NCBI GenBank assembly: GCA_963924565.1
Contig: OZ004611.1
Coordinates: forward strand, 29,574,001-29,638,000
DNA length: 64,000 nucleotides
Source: Ascidiella aspersa
Taxonomy: Eukaryota
Direction: 5' to 3'
Made by a program: the position numbers and the translations under genes. Below, one piece after another: positions 9,901 to 33,418 of the stretch (position 1 is its first letter; the number at the start of each line of letters is the position of its first letter). Below the pieces are notes generated by a model. The model was not told the origin of the DNA, ran no database searches, and saw only the letters and a list, made by a program, of their open reading frames with translations.

Positions 9901-11644
9901 GGTGGCCGAGGTTCTTGTTAGAGGGGTCAAAGCTCGCGCCGGTTGCGGATACAGATTCGATTGCGCTCCTAATGTCTTTTCCCAAGTGCTGGCATACGCT
10001 GACGACGGGTGTCTCATCTCGAGCTCGAGGTCACAGATGTGCGAGCAGCTGAAAGTGTGTGAGGACTTCGCCGGCTGGGCAGGTATCCGTTTTAACCCGA
10101 AAAAATGCCGCATAATGAACCAGGTGCTGGTTGGAAGTCGCCGACAACGGGATCCGCAGCCTTTCTCGCTCTCGGGCGAGGAGGTCAAGGTGATTGGTCT
10201 GGGCGAATTCTACCGCTACTTGGGAGTGCGGCAGGGATACCTTCCTGACACTCGATCGAACACCACCCTCGAGTTGTCTGCCGAGCGAATCAAGCGACTC
10301 TTTGAGTCGCCCCTCACGCCACACCAGAAGCTGCTGGCACTGAAGCGATTCGAGCTCCCCCGTCTGAGCTTCATCTTGAGGTTGCGGCATTTTCCGGTAA
10401 AGGAGTTGAGGAAGGTGGACTCTACGGTGCGGCGTTGCGTGCGCATTTCACTCCGCCTCCCAACACGAACGTGCGTGGCTTTTTACCACACGTCAGCAGA
10501 CAGCGGAGGCCTGGGGATCCCGTCGATCGCCGCCGAGGGCGACATACTGGCGGTGACACAGGCCTTCAAAATGCTGACAGCACCGGACTGGCGGGTGCGC
10601 GCCGTGGCCGTGGGTCGACTCGAATCTCTCTCGAAACGGATGGCCAAAGCTGAAAGTGTCGATGCCGGTGCGATGGCAGCTTTCATATCAGGGGGCAACG
10701 TCAGTGGTAACGGGTGCGGAGCGGGCGGAAGTCTGGAACGAGACTTGTTTACGTTTGTACGCAAGGCCTCGGAAAGGATCGATGTTCAATTCGTCGCGGG
10801 CGCTGACGGGCAGTTTTCTGTGACGTCTGGTGACAAGACGTTATCCCCCAGCAACCGGGCAGTATTTACCAGGACCCTCCACGCCTTACAATCAAAGCGT
10901 TGGAGGGAAGTGTGGGCCAGTCATCCAGACCAAGGTAAGACCGTAGGGGCCCACACCCAATACGGTTATTCGAACCACTGGTTGAAGAACCCCGGGGCTC
11001 TGACTATTCCAGAGCGCATTTTCGCGATGAAAGCACGCCTCAACCTCCTTCCTGTCAAGAAGGTTCGGGAACGATTTCACGGGGGACAGTCAGACGTTAG
11101 GTGCTGCAGATGCGGCAGTTCGGCCGAGACACTTCCCCACGTACTCAACCACTGTGTTCCCGTCATGCCCCAAATCCTATCTCGGCACGACGCCATACAG
11201 GGGGAAGTGTTGCGCCACGTACCTTCAGGGACCTTCACCAAGGTTTCTTGTGACCGAGTTTGCCGGGAGCACGCCGATGCCACGGGTGAGAACCTCCGGC
11301 CAGACTTGATTGTCGAGAGCGCCGACAGGTTCTTAGTCGTGGACTTTGCGTGCCCTTTCGAAAACGGCCAAGTTGCCCTTACCGCTGCTGCGGCCCGTAA
11401 GCACCAAAAGTACAGGGAGTTGTGTGGAAACTTGGCCCGTGTTTCCAAGAAGCGAGTCCTTTTCCACACCTTCATCATCGGCTCCCTGGGCAGCTATGCT
11501 CAAGGCAACAATTCCACCCTCAGCGCCTTGGGCATCACGGGCCGTCGTATGACGGAGGTAGCCAGAGCATGCTCAGCTCTGGCTATCAAGGGTAGCCACC
11601 ACGTGTGGCAATCTTGGTGCAGGGGGATTGTTACCAAACCTTAA
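6929..11644 (+). CDS. Retrotransposon protein (1571 aa from first ATG): 5 N-terminal zinc fingers, reverse transcriptase, CCHC knuckle, PD-(D/E)xK restriction-like endonuclease
   Basis: RT motifs NWRPISI, QKGF, WLDVKNAFGSI, GVRQGCPLS, YADD, FNPKKC, YRYLG; CRCGSSAETLPHVLNHC; RHD; RPDLIV..VVDFACPF..KHQKY. The track's 6767 start is a GTG inside the AT-rich repeat. Confidence 0.95.
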   Translation: MNVQPPRRRLRPAVRSRADQGTASSKPTKDAPSQEEAPPLSVTFRGPGDSVFRCGVSGCSMVSAALQSVKRHLASVHGLAVGVLDAACGKCSASFRSRGSLINVRDHYRACGAVAPAAAPRTPRAFCCPVCDSRWPSLVAAKSHHYQKHPGGPSRNNNSFVVAPGLLSPRRSIKQRPFTLNVRYVDAATTYKCPVPACPKGNDGYARVRTLKTHLSTCHKINNVLLRVVCGKCECVVADKAMSLLPASSHFKSCSGSGKPPSIPVPILPPSPANHSVGEDSDSSTVGKVPSLIFYQSKASINTTPPSDSEFLYGHVSPPSGSSHCSSVTLISPIATVAPVLSYADAVRTPSPKLSQIDLVTPPNLPTVGIQNSFSAECVDPYQPSEVSSVINATSPSGPPSFTLLRSWLNTPCTGSTRRVPVEIPQISPSRLARLAVTIRDHYRSRVNVATGVSPDPKPPKASVFLSGETPGREVVKVKEGPPVQGGWTDRPTQQLLVSNLLSAGELDQATSPPEVVEPCVAEATVAGAGEVSAAGNCPSPEPVPGAPERPAVKTRCEWEALLPSSPPVSDQVPVPVVGDVSHRSPVASSENASSSLPVRCNVNDPPLTDPSNDDLRARLAHVIDAHSSPDSFGELEHALEEWTKLAGSVDITRKQRKPRYNRGAQHRATTNRERGHPNKTTIPVKGAAAKGQCLRSAFWRDQRATVRRITDGLKGEVKCGIAPRVIEEKFRADLKAPGAYEHLEPVPSWMRATTGGGDASSGASGGVDSAPISPREVEMVLQSVNTASAAGSDGLSYGFWKALDPRGIVLAELFERCRIARRIPAQWRKSKVTLICKDPGGDLDDVSNWRPISICRNLYKLYAAVLARRLQRWALDGGVISPEQKGFMPVEGTFEHVFVLDSAWVDARQAKKDIFVAWLDVKNAFGSIRHDCIRSIMDELQVPDYLIECVADIYVGNTCVVRTAGGVTNEIPVGRGVRQGCPLSGLVFNLVAEVLVRGVKARAGCGYRFDCAPNVFSQVLAYADDGCLISSSRSQMCEQLKVCEDFAGWAGIRFNPKKCRIMNQVLVGSRRQRDPQPFSLSGEEVKVIGLGEFYRYLGVRQGYLPDTRSNTTLELSAERIKRLFESPLTPHQKLLALKRFELPRLSFILRLRHFPVKELRKVDSTVRRCVRISLRLPTRTCVAFYHTSADSGGLGIPSIAAEGDILAVTQAFKMLTAPDWRVRAVAVGRLESLSKRMAKAESVDAGAMAAFISGGNVSGNGCGAGGSLERDLFTFVRKASERIDVQFVAGADGQFSVTSGDKTLSPSNRAVFTRTLHALQSKRWREVWASHPDQGKTVGAHTQYGYSNHWLKNPGALTIPERIFAMKARLNLLPVKKVRERFHGGQSDVRCCRCGSSAETLPHVLNHCVPVMPQILSRHDAIQGEVLRHVPSGTFTKVSCDRVCREHADATGENLRPDLIVESADRFLVVDFACPFENGQVALTAAAARKHQKYRELCGNLARVSKKRVLFHTFIIGSLGSYAQGNNSTLSALGITGRRMTEVARACSALAIKGSHHVWQSWCRGIVTKP

Positions 11645-12820
11645 ACCATCCTTTGCAAGCGCAGACTGGCACCACACAAACACAAACCGGACGATCACGG
11701 CGGCGGGGCATCAACTTAACCGCAAATAAACCAGCTCACCAGTACGTTCATCAATCAGCCAACAACCCAGCCCACTCACCACCCCATCACCTCGGAAAAC
11801 TTCAGCCCTTTGACCCCAGCTCTATCCACGCCCCGCCGCCAACCCCTCCTCGCACTCCAATGTTAAAGCTGGCCTCCTCCAATCAAAACCCACTCCTGAT
11901 AGTTTCGCCGAGGTGCTCCCAACTCTTCAACCGCGCGGCAGCCGGGGACCAACTCTCCAAACACTTTAACGTTCCAACGTTCGTCTATCGTCCCCGGCCA
12001 ACACCTTCAACAGTTCCGCCCGCCACACCAGTCGAATCATCGTCAACGGCAAAAGGGCGGATGCCGCGCGGTCAACACCTCACCTCTTCACACCAATGGG
12101 GCCGGCTAGGAAGCCTGCCCCCGAACTGTCTGGCACCAACACTGGAGCACCTCGGCCCCCCAACCCACACGGAGGCCAGCAGGCCGGCGCACGTCGCCGA
12201 CCCACTAATTCGCACCATCCCCACCCGGTTTGCACAACACTTAGCTTTTAAATCTTTTTTTTTGTCTTAGGTAGCTCGTTTTTACACTTACTAGCAATTA
12301 AAGCACTTACCGCACTTAAACCTCTTTCAAGTTTTAAATGCACCCCCCTTTTTTTATATATATGCAAAGTTCCGAACTATTTTTTATATTTACATTGTTT
12401 TTAAATATTTTTATACCCACACCCCGTGTACTTTTTTCGCCACCCTCACCCCTTTCCACTCACTAGGCACACTTCCAAAATATGTATCTAAATTACACAA
12501 TACCATACCCGAGCCCAGTCTGCGCCAGTCCCTCTGTTCCTCCTGCGACGTCTCCTGCAAGCCCTACCATCGGCAGGCCCCACAATTCACTTAGCTTATA
12601 ACTTAACTAATCTGGCCCTAACTTTTTTAAATTTACCTTTTTTTCCACAGTAATCATCAATCTTAACCAAACCAAACCCACAAATTCTATCACCCATCGC
12701 CGTTACGGCGGTGGAGGCCGAGCGTGCAACGCACAATACTTATTGCCGGCGAAGCCTGTTTATATTGTCGTTTTCGTGTTTTATCGCCGTCAACACAATA
12801 AACCGGTGTACAGTCAAAAG

Positions 12821-13990: not shown

Positions 13991-16900
13991 CAGAGACCTA
14001 ACATTGGTGGTATACGAGCCTCATCCACGAGTTAACTTTGCAACTTCAATCGGGAAGGCAAAGAGTGAGCCCCTTCAGCTGGCCAAGTTCCTCGTAAACA
14101 GATTATACTTGTTAGGCGAGTTCCCCCGGTTGTCGTGTGGTATCGTAGTCACGTTCCTCGACTTGGAGCCCGACGACTCTCTTTTGAGAGCGTGAGGCAC
14201 AGATACTGGTTTGGAGCCCGACGACTCTCTGTTGAGAGCGTGAGGCGTAGATACTGGTTGGAAGCCCGACGACTCTCTGTTGAGAGCGTGAGGCCTAGTT
14301 TTTACTGGTTGGGAGCTCGACGACTATCTGTTGATAGCGTGAGGCACAGTTTTCGTCCCCCGGTTTTCAGCGGCTCCTACGCGGCCATCCGCGCGCTCCG
14401 CCCCGGGCCTCTTCAGCAGCGGAGCTCCCGGCATTTTTTTGCCGCAGCCCTCACCCGCACTCCACCGGAGGTCCCTGCAGTTGCCGGTGTGCCATCCGGT
14501 GTTTGCTGCCCAGCTCTTGGCCTCACCCCACCGGAGGTCCCTGCAACGTTGGCCAGCTCTTCGGCCCTCTACCTCCAGTGTTCGCCGACCCCCACCGGAG
14601 GTCCCTGCAGTTGCCGGTGTGCCATCCTGTGGTTGCTGCCCAGCTCTTGGCCTCACCCCACCGGAGGTCCCTGCAACGTTGGCCAGCTCTTCGGCCCTCT
14701 ACCTCCAGTGTTCGCCGACCCCCACCGGAGGTCCCTGCAGTTGCCGGTCTGCCCTCTAGTGTCCACTGGTCGGCTCTCCACTGTACCCCACCGGAGGTCC
14801 CTACAACTTCGGCAACTTTGTGGTGCTCTACCACCAGCGTCCAGCTACCCCCACCGGAGGTCCCTGCAACCTTGGACAGCCCAGCGGTCCTCTAACACCT
14901 GCACTCCGCCTCCACCACCGGAGGTCCCTGCACCTGCCCGCTGCTCTTAAGCCTTCACAACCGGAGGCTGTCGCAGCCGCCGGTCTGCCGTTTGTGCACC
15001 AGTTCCCGACCTTCACAACCGGAGGCTCTCGCAGCCGCCGGTCTGTCGTAAGTTGCTGTACCCGCTGAAACCAGCCACCATCTCAACTGCGCCTCTCCCC
15101 ACTCCATCTGCTCCCAACCAGCCTCACCGTCTCACCATCCGCTTCCAACCCATCCGCCTCAAAACCAGTTCTACCATCTGTTCCAAACCAGCCTGCTCAT
15201 CCATCTGCCTCACCGCCTCACCATCTGCTCCAATCGCGACAACACCACCGAACGTGACTACGATCCACATCCATCTTCACCACACGACAACCCACTACCA
15301 CCTACGAAGAACTTGGCCCATCACCACCAGCAGCCCTTCACCCCTAACTCGCGGATTACACTCTGGATTAATACCATCAAAACACAAAGGATTATTCCAC
15401 CTTTCATCGCTCTCAATCATCGCCGGATCCGACACCCTTCCCCCCCTGGTTGGCCCACATCGCCGGTCTCCTTCTAAACAAGTATTTTAGCATAACCTTC
15501 TATCCTTTTTGGCCGAGAAGCACCTAACTTTAATTTAATTTATCATACTCCCCCTCGGTTATATCTTTTAATACCCTCCCCCCCTGCAACTCAAGCAATT
15601 TTAATAAGGACTCGCGCCGGCTCTAAATTGTGCTTCCTCGGTCCCTCTACCAGTTTTATATCTTACCTTTTTATTATTACATTACATACATTTTACTACT
15701 ACATATTATTACATATTATTACATACGTCTCGCTCTTTTACAATTTTACTGTGCCACGACTACTCGCAGACTTATATTTTACCTTTTTATTATCACATAT
15801 TATTACATAAATTTTACTATTACATATTATTACACATTATTACATACGTCTCGCTCTTTTACAATTTTACTGTGCCACGACTACTCGCAGACTTATATTT
15901 TACCTTTTTATTATTACATATTATTACAAACATTTTATTATTACATATTACTACATATTATTACATACATTATATTATTACATATTATTACACATTATTA
16001 CATACGTCTCGCCCTTCTACAATTTTACTGTGCCACGACTACTCGCAGACTTATATTTTACCTTTTTATTATCACATATTATTACATACATTTTACTATT
16101 ACATACTACTACACATTATTACATACGTCTCGCTCTTTTACAATTTTACTGTGCCACGACTATTCGCAGACTGTACACCGGTCCCAACGTCATGAACGTT
16201 CAACCACCGCGTCGCAGGCTTCGCCCAGCAGTTCGTTCACGCGCGGATCAGGGGACGGCATCATCCAAACCAACCAAAGATGCCCCATCGCAGGAGGAAG
16301 CCCCACCCTTGTCGGTAACGTTTAGGGGGCCCGGGGATTCCGTGTTTCGGTGCGGGGTTAGTGGCTGTTCTATGGTCTCGGCAGCGCTCCAATCAGTCAA
16401 GCGCCATTTGGCATCTGTACATGGCTTGGCTGTTGGAGTGCTGGACGCGGCCTGTGGGAAGTGTTCCGCTTCCTTCAGGTCGCGTGGCTCCCTCATTAAC
16501 GTGAGGGACCATTACCGTGCCTGTGGAGCAGTCGCCCCCGCCGCTGCACCGCGGACTCCTCGGGCCGTTTGCTGCCCAGTCTGCGATAGTCGCTGGCCGT
16601 CTCTCGTAGCTGCCAAGTCCCACCATTACCAAAAGCACCCGGGCGGGCCGTCACGCAATAACAACAGCTTTGTGGTGGCCCCCGGTCTGTTATCACCTCG
16701 GCGTAGCATTAAACAACGCCCCTTTACTCTGAACGTGCGCTACGTCGACGCGGCTACCACCTATAAATGCCCCGTGCCGGCTTGCCCGAAAGGTAATGAC
16801 GGATACGCTAGAGTCCGAACATTAAAAACCCACCTCAGTACTTGTCACAAAATTAATAACGTCTTACTTAGGGTAGTATGTGGCAAGTGCGAGTGCGTCG

Positions 16901-19900
16901 TCGCCGACAAGGCTATGTCCTTATTGCCCGCCTCTTCGCACTTTAAATCATGTTCTGGCTCTGGCAAACCCCCGAGCATCCCGGTGCCCATACTCCCACC
17001 CTCGCCCGCGAACCACTCTGTTGGGGAGGACTCTGATAGTTCTACAGTTGGCAAGGTCCCTTCGCTGATCTTCTATCAGTCGAAGGCTTCGATAAATACC
17101 ACCCCGCCCTCGGACAGTGAGTTTTTGTATGGCCACGTCTCTCCCCCAAGTGGGAGTTCTCACTGTTCTTCAGTAACGCTAATTTCCCCCATCGCTACGG
17201 TTGCGCCGGTGTTGTCGTACGCCGATGCAGTCCGTACGCCATCTCCAAAGCTGTCACAGATAGATCTAGTTACCCCACCAAACCTACCAACCGTGGGCAT
17301 TCAGAATTCCTTTTCGGCAGAGTGCGTCGACCCTTACCAGCCTTCCGAGGTTTCGAGCGTCATCAACGCGACCTCACCATCTGGTCCCCCTTCGTTCACG
17401 CTCCTTAGGAGCTGGCTAAACACTCCTTGCACCGGGAGTACCAGGCGCGTTCCGGTAGAGATCCCGCAGATCTCTCCTTCTCGCCTCGCTCGACTGGCAG
17501 TTACAATTAGGGATCACTATCGTTCAAGGGTTAACGTCGCCACGGGGGTCTCGCCTGATCCGAAGCCACCGAAAGCGAGCGTGTTTCTCTCTGGAGAAAC
17601 ACCTGGCCGCGAAGTGGTGAAAGTGAAGGAGGGGCCGCCAGTTCAAGGAGGGTGGACGGATCGTCCGACACAGCAACTTCTTGTGTCGAACCTTCTTTCT
17701 GCCGGAGAACTGGACCAGGCTACATCACCTCCCGAGGTGGTGGAGCCGTGCGTTGCCGAGGCTACCGTTGCGGGAGCGGGGGAGGTGTCGGCGGCAGGGA
17801 ACTGCCCGTCGCCTGAACCCGTTCCGGGCGCGCCAGAGCGACCGGCCGTGAAGACCAGGTGTGAATGGGAGGCCTTGTTGCCGAGCAGTCCGCCTGTGTC
17901 CGATCAGGTCCCAGTACCCGTGGTTGGAGACGTGTCCCACCGAAGTCCTGTTGCAAGCTCTGAAAATGCGTCAAGCTCATTGCCTGTTAGATGTAACGTT
18001 AACGACCCACCTTTAACCGACCCCAGTAATGACGACTTGAGAGCTCGCCTTGCGCATGTAATTGACGCCCATTCTTCCCCCGATAGTTTCGGCGAGCTCG
18101 AGCACGCATTAGAGGAGTGGACCAAACTCGCTGGCTCTGTAGACATTACGCGTAAGCAGCGCAAGCCTCGATACAACCGCGGTGCTCAGCACCGTGCGAC
18201 CACCAACCGCGAGCGCGGCCACCCCAACAAGACAACCATACCAATAAAGGGGGCGGCCGCCAAAGGGCAGTGCTTGCGCTCAGCGTTCTGGCGAGACCAG
18301 CGAGCTACGGTTCGCCGCATCACGGACGGGTTAAAAGGGGAGGTCAAATGTGGGATAGCTCCTCGAGTCATCGAGGAGAAGTTTCGCGCCGACCTTAAGG
18401 CACCGGGGGCGTACGAGCATCTCGAGCCGGTACCAAGCTGGATGCGAGCCACGACGGGAGGGGGAGATGCGTCATCGGGGGCTTCTGGCGGTGTGGACTC
18501 TGCTCCAATATCTCCGCGCGAGGTGGAGATGGTTCTCCAGTCCGTTAACACTGCTTCGGCGGCAGGATCTGACGGGTTGTCCTATGGCTTTTGGAAGGCT
18601 CTAGATCCCAAGGGCATCGTCCTTGCGGAGCTTTTCGAGAGGTGTAGGATCGCTCGTCGGATTCCCGCGCAGTGGCGTAAGTCGAAAGTCACTCTGATCT
18701 GCAAGGATCCGGGCGGCGACCTCGACGACGTCTCGAACTGGAGACCCATTTCCATCTGTCGCAACTTGTACAAGTTGTACGCGGCGGTGTTGGCGCGGCG
18801 TTTGCAGCGCTGGGCGCTCGACGGTGGCGTTATTTCTCCTGAACAGAAGGGTTTCATGCCAGTGGAAGGAACGTTCGAGCATGTTTTCGTGTTGGACTCA
18901 GCCTGGGTAGATGCACGACAGGCGAAGAAGGACATCTTCGTCGCCTGGCTCGACGTCAAGAACGCCTTCGGCAGTATCCGTCACGATTGTATTCGTAGCA
19001 TAATGGACGAGCTTCAGGTTCCTGACTACTTGATTGAGTGCGTTGCTGATATCTACGTTGGTAACACGTGTGTCGTTCGCACGGCGGGTGGTGTTACCAA
19101 CGAGATACCAGTAGGGCGAGGGGTACGCCAAGGCTGCCCCTTGTCCGGCCTCGTATTCAATCTGGTGGCCGAGGTTCTTGTTAGAGGGGTCAAAGCTCGC
19201 GCCGGTTGCGGATACAGATTCGATTGCGCTCCTAATGTCTTTTCCCAAGTGCTGGCATACGCTGACGACGGGTGTCTCATCTCGAGCTCGAGGTCACAGA
19301 TGTGCGAGCAGCTGAAAGTGTGTGAGGAGTTCGCCGGCTGGGCAGGTATCCGTTTTAACCCGAAAAAATGCCGCATAATGAACCAGGTGCTGGTTGGAAG
19401 TCGCCGACAACGGGATCCGCAGCCTTTCTCGCTCTCGGGCGAGGAGGTCAAGGTGATTGGTCTGGGCGAATTCTACCGCTACTTGGGAGTGCGGCAGGGA
19501 TACCTTCCTGACACTCGATCGAACACCACCCTCGAGTTGTCTGCCGAGCGAATCAAGCGACTCTTTGAGTCGCCCCTCACGCCACACCAGAAGCTGCTGG
19601 CACTGAAGCGATTCGAGCTCCCCCGTCTGAGCTTCATCTTGAGGTTGCGGCATTTTCCGGTAAAGGAGTTGAGGAAGGTGGACTCTACGGTGCGGCGTTG
19701 CGTGCGCATTTCACTCCGCCTCCCAACACGAACGTGCGTGGCTTTTTACCACACGTCAGCAGACAGCGGAGGCCTGGGGATCCCGTCGATTGCCGCCGAG
19801 GGCGACATACTGGCGGTGACACAGGCCTTCAAAATGCTGACAGCACCGGACTGGCGGGTGCGCGCCGTGGCCGTGGGTCGACTCGAATCTCTCTCGAAAC

Positions 19901-22108
19901 GGATGGCCAAAGCTGAAAGTGTCGATGCCGGTGCGATGGCAGCTTTCATATCAGGGGGCAACGTCAGTGGTAACGGGTGCGGAGCGGGCGGAAGTCTGGA
20001 ACGAGACTTGTTTACGTTTGTACGCAAGGCCTCGGAAAGGATCGATGTTCAATTCGTCGCGGGCGCTGACGGGCAGTTTTCTGTGACGTCTGGTGACAAG
20101 ACGTTATCCCCCAGCAACCGGGCAGTATTTACCAGGACCCTCCACGCCTTACAATCAAAGCGTTGGAGGGAAGTGTGGGCCAGTCATCCAGACCAAGGTA
20201 AGACCGTAGGGGCCCACACCCAATACGGTTATTCGAACCACTGGTTGAAGAACCCCGGGGCTCTGACTATTCCAGAGCGCATTTTCGCGATGAAAGCACG
20301 CCTCAACCTCCTTCCTGTCAAGAAGGTTCGGGAACGATTTCACGGGGGACAGTCAGACGTTAGGTGCTGCAGATGCGGCAGTTCGGCCGAGACACTTCCC
20401 CACGTACTCAACCACTGTGTTCCCGTCATGCCCCAAATCCTATCTCGGCACGACGCCATACAGGGGGAAGTGTTGCGCCACGTACCTTCAGGGACCTTCA
20501 CCAAGGTTTCTTGTGACCGAGTTTGCCGGGAGCACGCCGATGCCACGGGTGAGAACCTCCGGCCAGACTTGATTGTCGAGAGCGCCGACAGGTTCTTAGT
20601 CGTGGACTTTGCGTGCCCTTTCGAAAACGGCCAAGTTGCCCTTACCGCTGCTGCGGCCCGTAAGCACCAAAAGTACAGGGAGTTGTGTGGAAACTTGGCC
20701 CGTGTTTCCAAGAAGCGAGTCCTTTTCCACACCTTCATCATCGGCTCCCTGGGCAGCTATGCTCAAGGCAACAATTCCACCCTCAGCGCCTTGGGCATCA
20801 CGGGCCGTCGTATGACGGAGGTAGCCAGAGCATGCTCAGCTCTGGCTATCAAGGGTAGCCACCACGTGTGGCAATCTTGGTGCAGGGGGATTGTTACCAA
20901 ACCTTAAACCATCCTTTGCAAGCGCAGACTGGCACCACACAAACACAAACCGGACGATCACGGCGGCGGGGCATCAACTTAACCGCAAATAAACCAGCTC
21001 ACCAGTACGTTCATCAATCAGCCAACAACCCAGCCCACTCACCACCCCATCACCTCGGAAAACTTCAGCCCTTTGACCCCAGCTCTATCCACGCCCCGCC
21101 GCCAACCCCTCCTCGCACTCCAATGTTAAAGCTGGCCTCCTCCAATCAAAACCCACTCCTGATAGTTTCGCCGAGGTGCTCCCAACTCTTCAACCGCGCG
21201 GCAGCCGGGGACCAACTCTCCAAACACTTTAACGTTCCAACGTTCGTCTATCGTCCCCGGCCAACACCTTCAACAGTTCCGCCCGCCACACCAGTCGAAT
21301 CATCGTCAACGGCAAAAGGGCGGATGCCGCGCGGTCAACACCTCACCTCTTCACACCAATGGGGCCGGCTAGGAAGCCTGCCCCCGAACTGTCTGGCACC
21401 AACACTGGAGCACCTCGGCCCCCCAACCAACACGGAGGCCAGCAGGCCGGCGCACGTCGCCGACCCACTAATTCGCACCATCCCCACCCGGTTTGCACAA
21501 CACTTAGCTTTTAAATCTTTTTTTTTGTCTTAGGTAGCTCGTTTTTAACCGCTTTACCGCCCCAAAATTGCACTTACTAGCAATTAAAGCACTTACCGCA
21601 CTTAAACCTCTTTCAAGTTTTAAATGCACCCCCCCTTTTTTTATATATATGCAAAGTTCCGAACTATTTTTTATATTTACATTGTTTTTAAATATTTTTA
21701 TACCCACACCCCGTGTACTTTTTTCGCCACCCTCACCCCTTTCCACTCACTAGGCACACTTCCAAAATATGTATCTAAATTACACAATACCATACCCGAG
21801 CCCAGTCTGCGCCAGTCCCTCTGTTCCTCCTGCGACGTCTCCTGCAAGCCCTACCATCGGCGGGCCCCACAATTCACTTAGCTTATAACTTAACTAATCT
21901 GGCCCTAACTTTTTTAAATTTACCTTTTTTTCCACAGTAATCATCAAATCTTAACCAAACCAAACCCACAAATTCTATCACCCATCGCCGTTACGGCGGT
22001 GGAGGCCGAGCGTGCAACGCACAATACTTATTGCCGGCGAAGCCTGTTTATATTGTCGTTTTCGTGTTTTATCGCCGTCAACACAATAAACCGGTGTACA
22101 GTCAAAAG
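13991..22108 (+). mobile_element. Full-length Utopia-like retrotransposon in U2 (copy 3)
   Basis: Near-identical to 4728-12820 with the same 5' and 3' junctions. Confidence 0.93.
16192..20907 (+). CDS. Retrotransposon ZnF-RT-RLE protein (1571 aa), intact
   Basis: Same motifs as 6929-11644; only a few amino-acid differences (e.g. F/V, V/I, R/K, D/E). Confidence 0.95.
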   Translation: MNVQPPRRRLRPAVRSRADQGTASSKPTKDAPSQEEAPPLSVTFRGPGDSVFRCGVSGCSMVSAALQSVKRHLASVHGLAVGVLDAACGKCSASFRSRGSLINVRDHYRACGAVAPAAAPRTPRAVCCPVCDSRWPSLVAAKSHHYQKHPGGPSRNNNSFVVAPGLLSPRRSIKQRPFTLNVRYVDAATTYKCPVPACPKGNDGYARVRTLKTHLSTCHKINNVLLRVVCGKCECVVADKAMSLLPASSHFKSCSGSGKPPSIPVPILPPSPANHSVGEDSDSSTVGKVPSLIFYQSKASINTTPPSDSEFLYGHVSPPSGSSHCSSVTLISPIATVAPVLSYADAVRTPSPKLSQIDLVTPPNLPTVGIQNSFSAECVDPYQPSEVSSVINATSPSGPPSFTLLRSWLNTPCTGSTRRVPVEIPQISPSRLARLAVTIRDHYRSRVNVATGVSPDPKPPKASVFLSGETPGREVVKVKEGPPVQGGWTDRPTQQLLVSNLLSAGELDQATSPPEVVEPCVAEATVAGAGEVSAAGNCPSPEPVPGAPERPAVKTRCEWEALLPSSPPVSDQVPVPVVGDVSHRSPVASSENASSSLPVRCNVNDPPLTDPSNDDLRARLAHVIDAHSSPDSFGELEHALEEWTKLAGSVDITRKQRKPRYNRGAQHRATTNRERGHPNKTTIPIKGAAAKGQCLRSAFWRDQRATVRRITDGLKGEVKCGIAPRVIEEKFRADLKAPGAYEHLEPVPSWMRATTGGGDASSGASGGVDSAPISPREVEMVLQSVNTASAAGSDGLSYGFWKALDPKGIVLAELFERCRIARRIPAQWRKSKVTLICKDPGGDLDDVSNWRPISICRNLYKLYAAVLARRLQRWALDGGVISPEQKGFMPVEGTFEHVFVLDSAWVDARQAKKDIFVAWLDVKNAFGSIRHDCIRSIMDELQVPDYLIECVADIYVGNTCVVRTAGGVTNEIPVGRGVRQGCPLSGLVFNLVAEVLVRGVKARAGCGYRFDCAPNVFSQVLAYADDGCLISSSRSQMCEQLKVCEEFAGWAGIRFNPKKCRIMNQVLVGSRRQRDPQPFSLSGEEVKVIGLGEFYRYLGVRQGYLPDTRSNTTLELSAERIKRLFESPLTPHQKLLALKRFELPRLSFILRLRHFPVKELRKVDSTVRRCVRISLRLPTRTCVAFYHTSADSGGLGIPSIAAEGDILAVTQAFKMLTAPDWRVRAVAVGRLESLSKRMAKAESVDAGAMAAFISGGNVSGNGCGAGGSLERDLFTFVRKASERIDVQFVAGADGQFSVTSGDKTLSPSNRAVFTRTLHALQSKRWREVWASHPDQGKTVGAHTQYGYSNHWLKNPGALTIPERIFAMKARLNLLPVKKVRERFHGGQSDVRCCRCGSSAETLPHVLNHCVPVMPQILSRHDAIQGEVLRHVPSGTFTKVSCDRVCREHADATGENLRPDLIVESADRFLVVDFACPFENGQVALTAAAARKHQKYRELCGNLARVSKKRVLFHTFIIGSLGSYAQGNNSTLSALGITGRRMTEVARACSALAIKGSHHVWQSWCRGIVTKP

Positions 22109-22258: not shown

Positions 22259-22497
22259 ATTCCCACACTGTGGGAATTCCTCTTCATCCAATTGAAAATT
22301 TGCTTCTTGTTTTGAAAAAAAGAAGCAAAACATAAATCGATTTTTCGAGCGAAAATTGAAAAGAAAAATGGTGACCGATCGGCCAAAAATGACAAATTTT
22401 GTTCCTAAAAGTTGATGCGGGGGGCTTATGGGGTAGCTATCCACAAAGAGTACGGGCGAGTAGTCGAGTAGGGCCTCGGGAAAAATCGTCACAACTC

Positions 22498-22525
22498 ATA
22501 CTTACCTGACGGGGGTCTTTAACCG
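22498..22525 (+). pseudogene. U1: 5' 28 nt of a U1 gene broken by a Tx1/L1-like element; end of the snRNA array
   Basis: ATACTTACCTGACGGGGGTCTTTAACCG then unrelated sequence; upstream spacer intact; 3' part of U1 not found in window. Confidence 0.9.
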
Positions 22526-23047
22526 CGTCACTCCAGGTGGTATATTGAGCCCGCTGCTCAACAGGTGCGAAATTAGTGCGTTACTCAGCTTATATCTTTT
22601 TTGAGTCTATCTCAGCCTTACAGTTTTGTTTAGTTTTGTCTAGTTTTGTTGTCTGGTCAGGCAAGCCTAGAATCTTTTTTCTTTTCTTAAAACAGCAACT
22701 AACCCTGGGCTGTTTTCCTTTGCGCCTTTATTAATTTTGTTTTTTTGGGGACAGTATCTAGCCCTTGGCTGCCACCTAGTGTTTTTTCTGCTCTTTTACT
22801 GGTGGCCGTATCTAACCCTGGGCGGCCACCACTTGCTCTTTTAAAAGACAGCATGTAACCCTACGCTGTCTACCTTAAAGCAATTATAACACGTTTTCTG
22901 TGACGTAACTAATTGCCAATCAAGCAATCAGCGCTTTTCGCTGATTGATTGATTATTTAATTGCCACTTTACCTTAATTTATTGTATTTTAACGTCTATT
23001 TGACGTTAAAATCACTACTACACCAACAAACCACAAATAATAAAAAT

Positions 23048-24261
23048 ATGTCGAGTGACGCCAAATCCCTCAACATTAAAATCGTCTGTGACGAAGCACA
23101 TGACATACAAGACTTTTTGCACCTCTTTGAGGAAGACGGTGCATTTGCCGAATACACAAACAATATTATTGGAGGACGAACTTTAAACCGAACAACAAAA
23201 TTATATATTATTACCTTTAAACCGGAATCGCTAGAAGAACAATACAATCATATGGCACTCCACAACTTAACAAAAGATGGCTTTCACACCACAACAAAAA
23301 CTGGCAAAAAATTTCTAATCACTTCTCGCATCCCTCCGAGACGAACAAAGAAAGTGACTTTATACCCTGCACCCTTTCACCTTGTTGAAAGCGACCTCAA
23401 AGAAATAGTAGAATACTTGGGATGGGGGACACTCGAAAACTGCTAATTTTGTTGCCATAAAAACCTCCCCTCTTTTCGGAACGGTTTTGTTAATCTGTAT
23501 ATCTCAGATATGATTCTCGAAAACATCGAACAGGAGATAGTTTTTGACCAATACACTATCCAGGTTCTTCGTCCCGGAGAGCCTATGGGCCCATATTGTG
23601 AAAAATGCCACACTCGGGGTCACTTGACCAGCGCATGCCCTGTTGCCGAAAAGCACAGATGCAGGCATTGTCAATCGACCGAGCATAAATCAAAACGATG
23701 TCCAAAACTTTACCATCATCGTCCCAACAATATGACCAAAATTACCCCCCTTTAAACAACGACAAACCATCGCAAGAAATCTCACAACAACAACAGCAAC
23801 AAGGTAACATAAACTCGCTCCTTGAGGTGATCGAGCACTTTGAAACCTCCGGTTCCCCAGTAGACCCCCCACCGCCACCCGATGCACAGAAAACCTCATC
23901 AACAACATCTCAACAAGACTCACCTAACATCCTAGATTTGCCAGTTCCCCTAATATTCTCCCCTGCGAGAGACAATTTACCATCATCGACAAGTGCCATT
24001 TCGGAACAACATTTTAATTTACTTGAAGAATTTGAAAATCATCCAGCAATAACTTTACATACCGGTACACCAAAGCGCCCACGAGCTGAGTCGCTCAGCC
24101 CAAACCGCCCTGCTAAATCCTCGTCACTCGATAGAGAGGGACGAAGTTCTAAGAGCTACGACCCCTCCACCCGATTCCAGCCTAATTCAGCGTAAAGAGA
24201 CTCCTGGGACGAGGCGAAGGCCCCTTTCCAAACTTAAAGGAAAATCTAAAAAAACCTAAAT
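23048..24261 (+). pseudogene. Tx1-like ORF1 (gag-like, two zinc knuckles) with a stop and frameshifts
   Basis: CEKCHTRGHLTSAC and CRHCQSTEHKSKRC; in-frame TAA at 23444; Ser/Pro-rich tail; end approximate. Confidence 0.8.
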
Positions 24262-24310
24262 AATCCAATCCTCTTTTCTTTTTTGTATTTGTTCTTCTCT
24301 CTGATCCGAT

Positions 24311-24929
24311 ATGATTTTTTCTCTACATAGTTTAAACATTAATGGGATAAAAAATAAATTTTTAAATCTAGAAAACTTTATTTCGAAAACAAAACCACAT
24401 ATATTAGCAGTACAAGAAACTCATAATATAAATAATCAAAAATTACACACGTTACAAACCAATATAAATTACAAATCCTACCAAACCGCCCCTGATAATA
24501 CATATACTAGTGGCACATACGAACGTTCAGGAATAATATTACTATATAAATCGGACTTGGAAAATGATTGGAACATTACACATCACATAATAACAATTAA
24601 ACGTATACAAGCCATTATCCTGACAAACAAAAACGATACGAATAATATAATATAATAATTAATATATATTTAACATCGGGCAATACATACTAGAACACAA
24701 CAAATCCCACTGCATATCAACCTAAACTAAAACACGAACATATTGATGCTTACAGATATTTTGAGCCTACGAAAAAAATTTTCACATATATTAGACGTAA
24801 TGCCGCTTCCAGGATTGATCGCATATATATTTCGAACACTTTAAAACCCAAATTAATATAAAATACAGTCACATCCCTATCACATTTTCAGACCATCAAC
24901 AATCCCCCTTTATAAACCTTAATTTAGAC
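24311..24929 (+). pseudogene. ORF2 N-terminal AP-endonuclease domain (disrupted)
   Basis: SLNINGIK, ILAVQETH, SRIDRIYIS (~24810), SDH (~24890). Confidence 0.88.
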
Positions 24930-27900
24930 CAGTGGTCTTCAACCTTTTTTACAAAATCGCCCCTTTGTTGAAAGTGCTGGTCCAAATCGCCCCCTCAAAC
25001 GAGGCCTCGAAATTAACGGCGGGCGTGGGCCGAAGGGTTTAGAAACGGCCACCGAAAGTAAGCTCTGCTCGGCCGCAGGTAACTTGAGAAGGATACAAGT
25101 AGCTTTGTATGCGTATTGCGAAAGCAAAACTCGTTTTGTTCTTATTACCATCGGAGATTCGGCTCGTTAACTCGTTGCGATACCTTTATAACTTTGGCAA
25201 CGTGCCATACTCGCTCCGATTAAAACCCACGTGCGTTTGCAAAACGTTTTTCACCTGGAATTAACGCGAAGCGCTGAAGCAGAAAACTTACGTCAATCAT
25301 AGACGTTTTTGTTGCTGGCCGCCGGAATCGCTTGCCGTTCGGCCATACTGGTTGCCGGGTGGAAAAGTTAAGTTCGAGGACTGCGAAACGATTGCCGTTG
25401 TACAAAAGTTCATGTCGCTAAAAATTTACATACAAAACTTCAAATATCCCAACAATATAAATAAGCAAAAGCAAGCACATTTTATTGAAATAAAACAGCT
25501 CGTGGAAGCTAATTAATGCGACCCTTGCGCCTGGTGCTTATTTGCAAGACTAGTAATAGCTGGGTGCAAGCCAGTCAGCTTAAGTCGAATTGCATTTCCT
25601 CCAGTCTTGTTGATGTCAAGTTGGTTTCGGTATTTATTTCTCATGTGCAATACTTCACTAAAACCTTGTTCAACAATGTATGTCGAAGGAAAAGCCAATA
25701 AATACAACTACTTCACTTTTGCCCATAGTTCCGGAAATCGATCATCGCACTTGATCCAGAAATCTACCCATCCATGTGCGAAAAAAATTGCTCGAGCTTT
25801 TTCGTCACTTTGCAAGTCGATAAGTAGTTCCTCCTGCATGGCAGAATCACATTCGTTAACTGAGATGTTTGCAGTAAATGGTTCTACCATCCATGGAAAA
25901 ACTTCAAGATCGAGCGTACATGTCTTTTTGAACAGCTTTCAGGTGTTCAATGTAAATGAGCAAATGATTGTCTGTGACATCAACCAATACTTTTGACAGT
26001 CGAGGAAAGTGATGGAATTATCTTCTGTTCAGGGTTTGTTGGTAAAGCTCCAGCTTGTTCATTAGGCCACGTATTATTGTTTTGCATTGAACCAACGTCG
26101 CATTTCTACCTTGGAGTTTGTTGATTGCGCTGTTAATTTTCTCAAAAAAATCTGCTAAACAACTGACATCTTGGTGGCAGGTAATTACATCTTTAGCAAG
26201 ATCAGATTCTTCACCAAGAAACTCCACTACACTTTTGTAAAGTTCACAGTACCTTGAAAGAGATTCGCCTTTCGACAACCAACGAACTTCCGTATGAAGC
26301 AGAAGACGCTCGAATTCTTCATCGTTCTCTTTGCACAGCTGTCGAAACATTCGGTTATTTTTGGCATTAGCCTTTATTTTGTTAATTGCGTTAACAGCAA
26401 CACCCAAAGATTCTTGCAGACGCGGACTAAGGCGTTTGGCAACCAAATGCTGACGGTGATCACACAATGCACAGTAAACAAATGGGGAAGTTTTTGCCGA
26501 AGTAAAGATGAAAACCCCCGATACCTGCCTACCATCGCTGGGGCACCATCAGTAGCGCATGCTACTATATTTGTAAGAGGGATAGATTTGTCTTGCAAGT
26601 AAGCTAACAAAGTTTGAAATATTGTTTGGCCTTTAGTGTATGTTTCCAAACACTTGCAAAATAAAAGCTCCTCCGTAATTTTGCCTTCAAATATATAACG
26701 GACATAAGCCATTAGTAATGCATTATTGTCTGATGTTGTGGTTTCATCCAGTTGTTAGCTGAAAGAAGCTTTTTTGTAGCACTTCACAAAGTTGTTCTTC
26801 ACTGTTTGCACCCATTTCATCAATTCTTCGCTTTACGGTAGTATCACTCAGTGGAACTGCTTGGAGTACAGGTGCAGGATCTTTCTCCATCACAGTTGAA
26901 ATAATTTCTTTAACAGCAGGTGCTACCAAACTTTCTCCAACAGTAAAGGGCAAGCCTTTTTTCGCAATTAATATAGAAATCTTGTAAGAAGCTATCAGTC
27001 CTTTGACGTTTTGGTCACCTTTTTTAGCAAAAATATTGCATATGCTACTTTGAGCATGACTCTCTTTTAAAGCTTGAAAAAACCCCGTTGGCTTGTTTGC
27101 TTTGTCAGGATGAATCCTGTTTAAGTGGTCCTTCAACCTTGACGGCTTCATAGCCTCATTACTGAGAGTTTTCTTACACAAAAGACACATGGGAAGTTGC
27201 ATATTCGATGGAAATGGTACAAAACCAAAGTTGATGTACCCCACAAGATAAGAACGGCACTTAATTTTTGCTTTTTTAGAATTAGAAGCCATAACCTTCC
27301 GCAATAAAATTACTATTTAAAATAAACCAGAAAACAAAAAAGTAACAATTTAAGAAATCGCTGTTACTTTCTTGTACTGCTATTATATATAATAAGCCTT
27401 CCGCTAACGCTATAAGCAGCAAACTTGACATCTTCTCTGCACAAATCAGTTAGTTTTTTGAAGTGCAGTACCCTGCGACAAATAAACGTCCGACTTGCAA
27501 GCTACCGATTGTCGAACGAAATTACCACGTGCTTGATCAGAGCACACTCAAAATCGCGCAGGCACACACGCATTTGCATTGCAACAATGTTTGACCACGG
27601 TTTGACCTTTTTTTTACTCGTGCACAAGTCGAACAAACCAAAAAGTAGTTTAAGGATCCAGAACGATTATAGCGTTCGTTATGCGCCCCGGTTTATGCGC
27701 AGAACGCTATATGAAGGCTAAATGTTTGTAGAGAAACGCGTCTCCTATTTCGGCGTCTTAAACAACACACACAGTTTGTATTTGAAACTTGTTGATGAAA
27801 TGAACGAAGAATCAAAGCTGGCTCAATTCAAGGAGACGGTTTCTACACAAAGGCAACGTGTCAAAACGTTTCACATGTGGTCCGAATTCAAATATTATGC

Positions 27901-28517
27901 TCACCAACTATTTGGGGGAACCGGGAGAAGTAATTAGCGTCACTAACTTATCAAACGCCTAAATAAAAACAAGCAATTTAGCAAACAAGGCCTCATTATG
28001 ACGTCACACATATAAACATAAACTTACCAAGACTTAAAGTTAAACAAATGAAGACAAGAAAGAGTGAGATGTCACTCTGACAAAGCTCACAAGAAAAGGC
28101 TGCAAAACAAGAGCAGTGTAAATACTCATAAAAGACGTTATCTTATACACGAAGCCATATTTCTAGGCGAACTGACTATTTGCGGTAGTAAATTTAGCAA
28201 AGGTTACTTTACATGTTGACATATTATTACCAAGGTTGCAAAACCACATTATACACAACGCAACTCACCAAAATCTTTCGTGTAACAAATACTTCAGTTT
28301 AAACAAAACGGCAGCAATACAACTTCCACCACGACAGTCAGGCGAAAAGGAAAACCACATGTATCAGAAAGTAAGCTCACAACGGTACAGCACCAATGTC
28401 TCATAGAAATCAGTAATTACTGGCAAATACGACGTAACAACGATCTTGACCGATAATTGCGCTCGGCCTTACCAATCGCCCCCTAAACAGTAAAATCGCC
28501 CCCGTTGAAGAACACTG
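24930..28517 (-). mobile_element. hAT DNA transposon (Buster/Charlie type)
   Basis: TIRs CAGTGGTCTTCAAC / GTTGAAGAACACTG; 8-bp TSD ATTTAGAC / ATTTAAAC; Tx1 ORF2 resumes after it. Confidence 0.92.
25513..27304 (-). pseudogene. Frameshifted Buster-type hAT transposase
   Basis: BED-like CLLC..LSNEAMKPSRLKDHL..H, ATDGAPAM, HC, LLLHTEVRWLSKG, FPSTYIVEQGFS across several ORFs. Confidence 0.9.
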
Positions 28518-28846
28518 ATTTAAACAAACAATCCCGCAGGGACGCGGAAAATGGAAACTTAATGTAACTTTATTAAAACATCCAATTTATATACAAAGAA
28601 TCAAAAATACAATAGCACAGTGGCAAGCTAACTTGAAATCACATGACGACTTGTGTCAACAATGGGAAAAATAAAAAATAAAATGGGAATCAATTCTTTT
28701 CGCCCAAAAAAAACAACACCAAAAATCGTTTTCTACAAACCAAGCTTGAAAATAAACTTAAATCAATAATGGAAAATATCGATTACGACAACTTAGAGTA
28801 CAACATTGATTACTTAGACACTATTGAAAAACTTAAAACTATTGAC

Positions 28847-30594: not shown

Positions 30595-31218
30595 ACTCCA
30601 TTGGCGATAGTTCTAACTGACTTTAAGAAAGCTTTTGATATGGTTGACCACAATTTAATGTTTACAATTTTAGAAAAAATGAAAAATCCATTATAAAATG
30701 GGTACATATAATATATTATAATATAGACAGCAAAATTTTAATAAATGGTACGCATACCTCTCCAATTCATATCAAGCGAGCATCCTCATTGGGGAAACCC
30801 TGGCAAGAAAATAAACAGTACGAAACAACTCAGCGGCATTACTTTTAATAATATGAACATTCGTCTTCAACAATATGCTGACGACACAATTCATTTTTTC
30901 TTTCAAACTCTAATGACGTAAAAACATTATTTACGATACAAAACAATTACGAAGAAGCCACGGGTCAAACACTAAATATGTCTTAAACAGAAATCTTAAC
31001 AACCATTTATTCCGAATATATTACTAATTTTCTTTGGCACCCCGAATATTTTAAAACGTTTAAGCGAACCAAATGAATTATGCCTATAGGTAAGGGAGGT
31101 TTAAATGTCCCAGACCTGTACACCAAAATTCTTGCCGCTAATCTAGAAAGATTTAAATATATTAAAAACATAGAAAATCCGAATCAATTCTTTTTCACCT
31201 ATCAATTAGGTTTCAAAA
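30595..31218 (+). pseudogene. Decayed RT domain of the Tx1-like ORF2
   Basis: LAIVLTDFKKAFDMVDH, QQYADDT (~30868), GGLNVPDL (~31095). Confidence 0.8.
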
Positions 31219-31269
31219 TTATGTGACCCGTGTGTTCCGAATGCAATATTCGCGGACATTGGGCCCAAG

Positions 31270-32740
31270 CACCGAAATTGTATTCACTGCAATCTTTAAA
31301 ATGAACTGTGACATTGGATCAGTGTTAACTTCTAGTAAAGAGACAATTTCTGAGTTCACAGCTGAGGAGCTTAAAATTATTAGAAGAAGGTGTAGACTTA
31401 CAGACAATCTTACAACCCTGTGGGTTGTCATACAACAAAGTATTTACAACATTATGCATATCATAACAATTTGCTGTGACCTATAATTCAGCAGCCACAA
31501 AAAAATTTATCTTCAGTTTCTGTTTGGAACATCCATATTTTGATCTGGTGCCAGGAAAAAAATTCTGCCATCGTTATCTGTTTCTAAAGGTTTTTTACAG
31601 TAGAAGCACAAAGTTCTTTAATCTGTAGTGCTTAAACTTTTTAAAAATAAAATTCCCATTGTTAAAAAAGTAGTGTGTTTACAGATGGTGCTGCTGGACA
31701 ATATATAAAATCAGAAAAAATCTCCGAAATCTAATGTTTTAACACGACTTTAATTTATATGTTAAATGGCATTAAGGACAATGTGACGGGTTAGGTGGAA
31801 CTGTAAAAAGATTGGCTGCTCGGACAAGTCTGCAGAAAATTGGAAAACATTGTATGCAAACCCCAAAAAAGAGATGCCTGATTGGGCCACATCAAATATC
31901 TGCAATATTAATTTTTCATTTGTATTCAATAAGGAAGTAGAAAAAGAAATGCTTTGTTCCAGAGGAATCTTGCCAGAATCAATGTGTCTGAATTTTTTGC
32001 ATGTTTAGATTATTAAAAGGTCTGGATTTGTGACATTCCTTAAAACAACTATCACACTGGGATGAGCAAAGGGGGGTTGTTACTAGCAAATACAACAACC
32101 AATGGTGGCTTTCCTGTATTTTAGACCTATTAAAGAAATCAGATGAAGTGATGGTTACTTTTCTACAAGTTTATATCCATCAGCGGCCACAGAAAGAATT
32201 TGTTAATTGACCAGCAAAGAACAACAAAATGCATAACATGTCACTACAGAAATGTGGAGTGGAATTTTGTTTTGTACTTGCAATTTAGTTAGGTCCAATG
32301 AAGAAATGGCTTAGAAAGTGGCAATGTATGTTATAGATAAATTTCCATAATTGAATAAAAGCAAAGAACACCATACCCATTTTCCTGCTAGTTACCTAAC
32401 AAATATAACTTTTTACCCTAAAGAAAAAAAATCGTAAAATAAAAAAGTATCAGAAGTGCCCGTTTTAACGGTTACATTTTTTTAATGTTTACCATGTAGG
32501 GGTTATGTCAGATACTTATGTTCAAAATATTCTTTTTAGGCCTTTAAGGCACAAAGGACACATTACATGTTAATCTAGCTTGTGTATATCCAAAGATATG
32601 GCTGTTTTCATGCAGAAACAGCGCCCTCGAGTTTACCTAAATAACTTTGCAAATACACAACAGACTAGAATAAAATTTGGCACACATCTTCAATTAAAGG
32701 TCCTTTACATATATTTTAATTTTAAAAATTAATCAAACTC
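31270..32740 (+). mobile_element. Heavily decayed DDE transposon remnant, Sola2-like; limits approximate
   Basis: FTDGAAGQY (~31678) and GQCDGLGGTVKRLAARTSLQ (~31776) resemble Sola2-type motifs (family assignment from memory). Confidence 0.55.
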
Positions 32741-33157: not shown

Positions 33158-33418
33158 ATGAATACATTTTCCACCAAGACCAATTGCAAGAACTTTAAAC
33201 CGCACCACAAACCTTTACATCAAAGGCGTTGCCACATATGCTGTCACAAGAACTTTGAGTATCAAATTCGACTTGACGAAATACATCATATTATACAAGT
33301 ACTCACGTGCTCGGAGTGCGGCATCCGGGGGCACTGGGCGAACGTCTGCTGCCCCAACAAAAAATACCCCGCTACCAAACAGCAGCATTCTCCTGCGAAA
33401 AGAGACCCCAGTGACTAG
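33158..33418 (+). CDS. Small 86-aa ORF with CCHC zinc knuckle immediately after the Tx1 ORF2 remnant
   Basis: CSECGIRGHWANVC (CX2CX4HX4C), preceded by CHICCH; ATG start. Confidence 0.45.
   Translation: MNTFSTKTNCKNFKPHHKPLHQRRCHICCHKNFEYQIRLDEIHHIIQVLTCSECGIRGHWANVCCPNKKYPATKQQHSPAKRDPSD

Follow-up and report, generated by a model that had tools for sequence, protein, structure and literature searches.

The window analysed here, a stretch of 64,000 nucleotides (G000:C5:29574001-29638000 of a 309-Mb assembly) which holds the right-hand end of a 1193-bp U1-U6-U2 tandem array, contains an old, broken copy of an L1/Tx1-like LINE of the AP endonuclease (APE) type, which opens with the first 28 nucleotides of a U1 snRNA gene and lies directly behind the U1 promoter. 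We consider it probable that this LINE belongs to a family that targets U1 genes leakily by target-primed reverse transcription, borrows the U1 promoter, re-anneals its U1 head to the upstream half-gene and descends from elements that targeted spliced-leader (SL) RNA genes.

The U1 junction and the LINE in the window

The relevant part of the window was found to contain the following features.

13991..22108 (start approximate), + strand: intact RLE-type (Utopia-like) element in U2, with a 1698-aa ORF carrying RVT_1, CCHC and PD-D motifs; U2 resumes at nt 41
22264..22497, + strand: U2-U1 spacer and U1 promoter side, array-like; promoter side plus head differ by 1 mismatch in 262 nt from each of the four intact U1 units of the window
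22498..22525, + strand: U1 snRNA nt 1-28, the head of the element, identical to intact U1; the same head is found on the copies on C1 and at C5:29.78 Mb
22526..23047, + strand: LINE 5' UTR, 522 nt with one ATG, 72% identical to the C1 copy
23048..24195, + strand: ORF1, broken by a stop (23444-46) and a frameshift near 23.7 kb; CCHC knuckle; 75% amino acid identity to C1 over 131 aa
24311..24929, + strand: N-terminus of ORF2 with the AP endonuclease (PF03372, E 3.5e-7; tblastn with the C1 ORF2), broken
24930..28517, - strand: hAT-like DNA transposon nested in ORF2, with terminal inverted repeats, an 8-nt duplication (7/8 matching) and a weak zf-BED match below cut-off; the hAT label is tentative
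28539..28846, + strand: ORF2 remnant past the transposon, 64% to C1
28847..30591, + strand: cassette spacer, 5' part of U2 and 5' piece of an older RLE copy, in array orientation; 97% to the spacer and 84-93% to the RLE 5' region
30595..31219, + strand: ORF2 reverse-transcriptase remnant of the same or a second LINE copy, 73-75% to C1
32729..33185, + strand: last ORF2 remnant, 65% to C1

The break of U1 after nt 28 that the initial annotation described was confirmed by the comparison with the intact genes. It had also reported a leader of about 520 nt with a single ATG and an APE-type ORF2, and both descriptions agree with the measured 522 nt and with the endonuclease domain starting at 24311. 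The element had further been called complete-looking, which did not hold: besides the stop and the frameshift in ORF1, the APE frame is open for 112 codons only, and the element has lost its 3' end. The CCHC match of the window ORF1 is weak and below the Pfam cut-off. The remnant that ends at 33185 is not followed by a 3' UTR, a polyA or a U1 3' half; the search of the window found no U1 3' half and no duplication downstream and only one junction is visible, as had been said. The next 10 kb past the window (L068) gave no match to the U1 3' half or the duplication. Insertions of about 1.5 kb and of no assigned type were seen both in the LINE remnant (31220-32728) and in an array unit (L146:1162-2738).

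The LINE opens with CGTCAC at the position where U1 reads TGATCAC, a resemblance pointed out earlier, and the first 6 nt of its 5' UTR may be decayed U1 nt 29-35; in a shuffle test for a decayed-U1 origin of the bases past nt 28 the LINE was not significant (392/2000 for the window, 1713/2000 for the C1 copy), and the companion SINE described below was nominally significant (21/2000). A promoter-plus-head pattern matched 48 places in the assembly, against none for a reversed-pattern control, which rules out chance. These were 44 intact U1 genes, two LINE copies, one U1 fragment and one RLE junction. The promoter-like match at C5:30.08 Mb was rejected as a LINE copy, being the U1 fragment alone, without LINE. 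The RLE junction lies just left of the window (L005:8071-8097; G000:C5:29572051), where the promoter and U1 nt 1-27 run straight into the RT region of an RLE element that is truncated at its 5' end, and the remaining U1, U6 and the start of U2 are absent. A junction of this kind can therefore form without the Tx1 protein, or at a Tx1 nick.

As to the proposal that two types of element share one cassette, an RLE element sits in U2 and the APE LINE in U1. Intact RLE-type elements occupy U2 at the Utopia/Keno site. The young Utopia-like copies (window 4728-12820 and 13991-22108; L166) replace approximately U2 nt 18-40, and older, degenerate RLE copies were observed at 28.9-30.6 kb and at C5:29.76 Mb.

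Other copies of the LINE and a companion SINE

A genome search with the LINE 5' UTR gave two matches, the window and a copy on contig C1. The C1 copy is the only full-length one (about 6.3 kb, with polyA, one ORF1 frameshift and one ORF2 stop) and sits off target, in non-U1 DNA. It opens with U1 nt 2-28 inside a target-site duplication of about 35 nt, which is interrupted by 27 nt on its 5' side and encloses head, element and polyA. Its domains are PF03372, PF00078, a weak zf-RVT and a zf-CCHC above cut-off, and human L1 ORF2p was the best solved relative (E 2.5e-47). A third copy was detected by an RT search of the genome, in which the best 150 of 470 candidates were scored. Found at C5:29.78 Mb and oriented the other way, this copy has a U1 promoter in front of it and leaves U1 after nt 27. 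In ORF2 it shares 87-89% identity with C1, at its start it resembles the window copy, and on its 3' side it continues into cassette spacer. Thus U1 nt 1-27/28 and then a common stretch of about 45 nt open each of the three copies that have a 5' end, and in two of the three the U1 promoter stands upstream (junctions at nt 28 and nt 27). Because the identical start recurs in two other copies, we take the U1 junction as the true start of the element. Four more RT-positive loci (L151/L152, L153, L154 and L160) lack the U1 head; L153 has an SL head.

The endonuclease DNA of the two other copies is 62-70% identical to that of the window. Mismatches between the window and C1 ORF1 at the three codon positions numbered 45/32/113 over 221 codons, mostly in third position, which indicates that the two diverged under purifying selection and represent separate lineages, not one duplicated insertion. 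Both array copies lack the 3' end and return downstream to cassette spacer in array orientation, a configuration that one crossover with a dispersed copy would fail to produce.

The LINE body was present in sequencing runs X21, X1 and X2, with differences scattered over the contigs of X1 and X2, which points to an old shared insertion; one X1 contig carries a C1-type start behind a U1-like head. In DNA run X21 the head was followed by intact U1 in 1028 reads and by the SINE in 57, with no LINE variant among the rows listed. Depth in this run was approximately 1450 over U1 and 2-8 over the LINE, so that some 200 or more U1 units may exist, compared with 46 in the assembly, which may hold only a fraction. 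RNA run X22, of which about 6% was read, yielded 8 reads, four of them of the SINE type; the 5' UTR and ORF1 had none, and intact-U1 reads were likewise absent, so this result is weak. The anatomy of the copies suggests that the LINE would be transcribed from the U1 promoter, and the start points and read-through copies of the SINE lend this indirect support.

We searched for the other junction from both sides. The search with the C1 3' end gave 41 matches, with the best 40 of 97 candidates scored, and 30 of the matches were fetched; U1 followed the LINE in none of these 30 ends, which fall into 13 flank groups and include 70-92% identical relatives, some from related subfamilies. The search with the U1 3' half gave 64 matches, 44 in array genes and 20 dispersed, and no LINE stood upstream of any of the 20 dispersed halves, all of which were read. 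A LINE-polyA-U1 junction was absent from the assembly, in which the polyA-U1 pattern found one SINE locus only. The U1 specificity of the LINE is at best leaky. The claim of a U1-specific family was therefore upheld in part: the recurrent nt 27/28 junction, behind the promoter in two of three copies, and the SL-gene-specific sisters described below favour it, whereas the off-target position of the full-length copy and the lack of U1 at 30 of 30 3' ends do not. Junctions near U1 nt 28 did recur, and a duplication was seen at the off-target C1 copy.

Several features of the 3' ends were observed besides. A motif of about 45 nt in the 3' UTR is conserved across the U1 family and the families at the SL variant on C7 (L067 3' UTR; L070-L098, L156, L157), and may halt reverse transcription as a folded or protein-bound RNA. 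Many short copies begin at one point about 215 nt from the 3' end, within a word that we take to be box C-like, and a presumably box D-like word lies near the tail. Neither the C1 3' UTR nor the sequence upstream of 18 relatives gave a credible Rfam match. At L074:1730-1862 (also L075, L077, L078 and L081) a U4-like sequence (Rfam, 53.6 bits) is closely preceded by a short LINE 3' end, and these U4-adjacent ends have been amplified in several loci with common flanks. At L092 a U2-like 3' stem follows the LINE 3' end.

The genome also contains a SINE with a U1 head (about 385 nt, with polyA and with duplications at many copies; for example L003:4897-5290), for which 297 candidates were found genome-wide, the best 40 scored and 30 fetched. 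Of the 26 heads that could be read, 14 begin at U1 +1 or +2, and 11 of these exactly at +1. Sixteen of the 26 have in common a change at nt 16 that is absent from array U1, in keeping with a master located outside the homogenised array. Twenty further dispersed U1 heads, from 107 matches, all belonged to this SINE. Some copies adjoin U1 on the 3' side as well: at L113 head, SINE and polyA are followed by U1 from nt 27 to its normal 3' end; at L135, which was found through the U1 search, SINE tail and polyA are followed by U1 from nt 26, all within one duplication; and at L169 the polyA precedes nt 13-28 of another U1 head. In copies not selected for it, U1 sequence stood at the 3' junction in 1/30 and 1/14 readable ends. 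None of the 48 promoter-plus-head matches in the assembly had the SINE behind the U1 promoter. SINE and LINE have in common the head and a weak stretch of about 70 nt (E 0.09), and their tails are unlike; the SINE may be mobilised by the machinery of this LINE. Copies with the U1 start, the SINE body and U1's own 3' end suggest that masters lay inside U1 genes and were read from U1 start to U1 end.

Sister families at spliced-leader genes

Relatives of ORF1 cluster on contigs C3 and C7 (49 matches, 30 fetched), and 22 of 28 fetched relatives, the U1 family excluded, start at the SL exon or, on C7, at an SL-like exon that appears to be an SL variant. The genome contains arrays that begin with the 16-mer given as the Ciona spliced leader in Table 1 of PMC1488885, the portion of that paper on which we rely, and the host is on this basis presumably an ascidian. 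APE LINE families with both junctions were found in two SL arrays (G000:C3:5.2-5.43 Mb and C7:14.2-14.8 Mb, with 584-bp and 429-bp units). The LINE loci in these arrays are as follows.

L042-L062, L148, L155-L157, L161 and L162: LINEs in SL arrays

Several of these sisters have intact ORFs, the 5' junctions on C3 fall at SL nt 30-31, and the SL gene is rejoined after the polyA in all five array copies read to the end. Dispersed SL-headed copies (L041/L158, L065 and L153) keep the head without the promoter flank. A tRNA-like stretch was seen by eye in the 3' UTRs of the SL-targeting L148, L155, L157 and L158; ARAGORN called no tRNA in 8 loci. We found no report of an SL-targeting APE element in the literature searched, outside which lay Repbase and most subscription papers.

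The SL sisters are 52-58% identical in the RT to the near-intact C1 copy, compared with at most 50% for database matches; the best match in the homologue search had 37% identity. The U1 element nested among the SL sisters in three quick trees with SH-aLRT values of 99, 95 and 89-92, obtained as quick or FastTree runs on subsets of 120 proteins and 80 loci and with a midpoint root only. The single match labelled TX1 (P0055) fell outside the clade holding the U1 element, in trees without named Repbase references. The family landing in U1 was likely derived from SL-gene-targeting elements, and the direction of the switch would be from SL to U1.

Further relatives came from metagenome data. L187, the best of 80, lies in the SL gene of an SL-U2-U1 cassette, and L192, L198 and L246 are flanked by U2. 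Locus L193 (OFBE01000058.1, 23-6205) is an intact L1/Tx1-type LINE that sits inside a U1 gene; both of its junctions are visible, and a duplication of 12-15 nt covers the same stem-loop. A single U1 lineage for L193 and the window element was rejected (AU test, p 4e-13), and L193 is therefore an independent case, which speaks for the feasibility of such targeting and not for the target of the window family. The near-identical L195 adjoins U1 without the junction of L193.

Origin of the U1 head and relation to known elements

Under the mechanism that we favour, insertion would proceed by target-primed reverse transcription, and the family would favour, though leakily, the first stem-loop of U1 genes. 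The endonuclease would nick near U1 nt 23-26, and the U1 head of the cDNA would anneal to the upstream half-gene, giving a seamless 5' junction. A copy landing in a U1 gene would be transcribed from the U1 promoter upstream; only such promoter-backed copies would act as masters, and off-target progeny would keep the head without a promoter. The 3' ends of both array copies would have been lost by deletions and array turnover, the U1-headed SINE would use the LINE machinery, and the family would have switched its target from spliced-leader RNA genes to U1.

It is also conceivable, though unlikely, that the head is acquired at the RNA level, by a reverse transcriptase that jumps to a U1 5' fragment ending at about nt 24-28, after which the cDNA anneals to a nearby U1 gene; the endonuclease would then have no U1 preference and the array copies would stem from insertions elsewhere in the cassette. 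The main support for such a jump is the RLE element joined to U1 nt 27, and it would agree with a junction that varies in position (nt 27, nt 28 and, in one X2 contig, nt 24), with the lack of U1 after 30 LINE 3' ends and with the repeated U1 5' additions to SINEU-2, for which template switching was proposed (Kojima 2015, PMC4494074). However, the head and the bases next to it are common to three diverged 5' variants, which indicates that the head was inherited and not added anew. Moreover, 2 of 44 unselected SINE copies have their 3' junction on U1 nt 13-27, where a hand estimate would give roughly 1e-5 per insertion, and the SL sisters and L193 are genuine cases of snRNA-type genes targeted with two junctions.

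More doubtful still is the view that the LINE, although U1-headed, inserts at random and is driven by an internal promoter, in the manner of the crocodilian U1-headed Tx1 elements, and that the array recombined into its 28-nt head. The promoter side in the window is a near-perfect match to the array of this individual, the LINE beside it is decayed and the arrays of other samples differ, which together imply that recombination reaches the junction; the dispersed LINE 3' ends and the nt 16 change common to SINE heads fit as well. This account, however, needs two separate crossovers within 27-28 nt, each with cassette DNA downstream too, and leaves unexplained both the read-through of the SINE into the U1 3' half and the nesting of the element among SL-specific families. 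That the junction is a deletion breakpoint or an assembly artefact which removed the true start is very improbable, and the C1 copy largely refutes it. There has been much rearrangement in the region and, among the listed reads and contig pieces, none bridges the junction by 31 nt on both sides, but the same start was found inside the target-site duplication at C1 and again at C5:29.78 Mb, the LINE body occurs in X21, X1 and X2, and an X1 contig spans from nt 4 of the head into the 5' UTR.

Leaky U1 targeting with a borrowed promoter has parallels among known elements. Keno is a U2 snRNA-specific APE element of the Tx1 clade (PMC4494074; available part of PMC4640811). Like Keno, the family described here is an AP-endonuclease LINE lying in sense orientation in a Pol II snRNA gene whose 5' part is kept in front; unlike Keno, its target is stem-loop I of U1, used leakily, and its 3' junction is putative. 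Insertion at the Keno/Utopia site of U2 was not found for this element, the head of which is U1, and it branches separately from the Keno-like L192 and L198. The crocodilian families Tx1-2_Crp, Tx1-2B_Crp and Tx1-4_AMi, together with SINEU, have U1-derived heads and Mariner-N4 or LTR targets, and their transcription was left open (PMC4494074). As in crocodilians, an L1/Tx1-type LINE and a short polyA retroposon are both U1-headed here; unlike there, copies in this ascidian-type invertebrate host stand behind a real U1 promoter and SINE copies read into the U1 3' half. The LINE has the U1 head of the Tx1-Mar families, lacks their preference for Mariner-N4_AMi (its flanks are the U1 promoter or diverse) and was not grouped with the Keno-like loci. 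The companion SINE has the snRNA-derived head, polyA, length below 500 bp and duplications of SINEU, and would be a SINEU-like family outside crocodilians, which we assume to have arisen independently of the crocodilian SINEU.

NeSL and other SL-targeting RLE elements, and Utopia, insert into SL RNA or snRNA genes, and a target switch of NeSL from U2 to SL has been proposed (available part of PMC4640811). These elements use a restriction-like endonuclease, whereas the window family belongs to an APE clade and would have switched from SL to U1. Dada-U1A/B_DR are DNA transposons specific to U1 genes with 6-7 bp duplications (available part of PMC8869645); they resemble the window LINE in their insertion into U1 and differ in not using reverse transcription. 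The available part of Kojima and Jurka 2015 (PMC4640811) lists as snRNA-gene-targeting elements then known only Keno and Utopia (U2) and the DNA transposons Dada-U1 and Dada-U6. As that list holds no U1 retrotransposon, a U1-targeting one would fill a gap. U1-headed Tx1 elements are already in print; a U1-targeting retrotransposon was not found in the literature searched, to which Repbase, Repbase Reports, Kojima and Fujiwara 2004, most subscription papers and the figures and supplements of PMC4494074 did not belong.

The transcription of snRNA-headed SINEs was called an open question (Kojima 2015, PMC4494074), and masters inside U1 genes offer a testable answer to it. In a broader reading, for which we see the case as evenly balanced, an APE-LINE clade of ascidians would be a parasite of snRNA-type genes that have external promoters and would have switched from SL RNA to U1, masters read from the U1 promoter would explain the transcription of U1-headed LINEs and SINEU-type elements without an internal promoter, and stem-loop I of U1 would have been adopted at least twice independently by AP-endonuclease LINEs. 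The intact SL-specific sisters and the near-intact U1-headed copy form a natural pair for studying how an AP endonuclease changes its target, a change that bears on tools for site-specific gene insertion.
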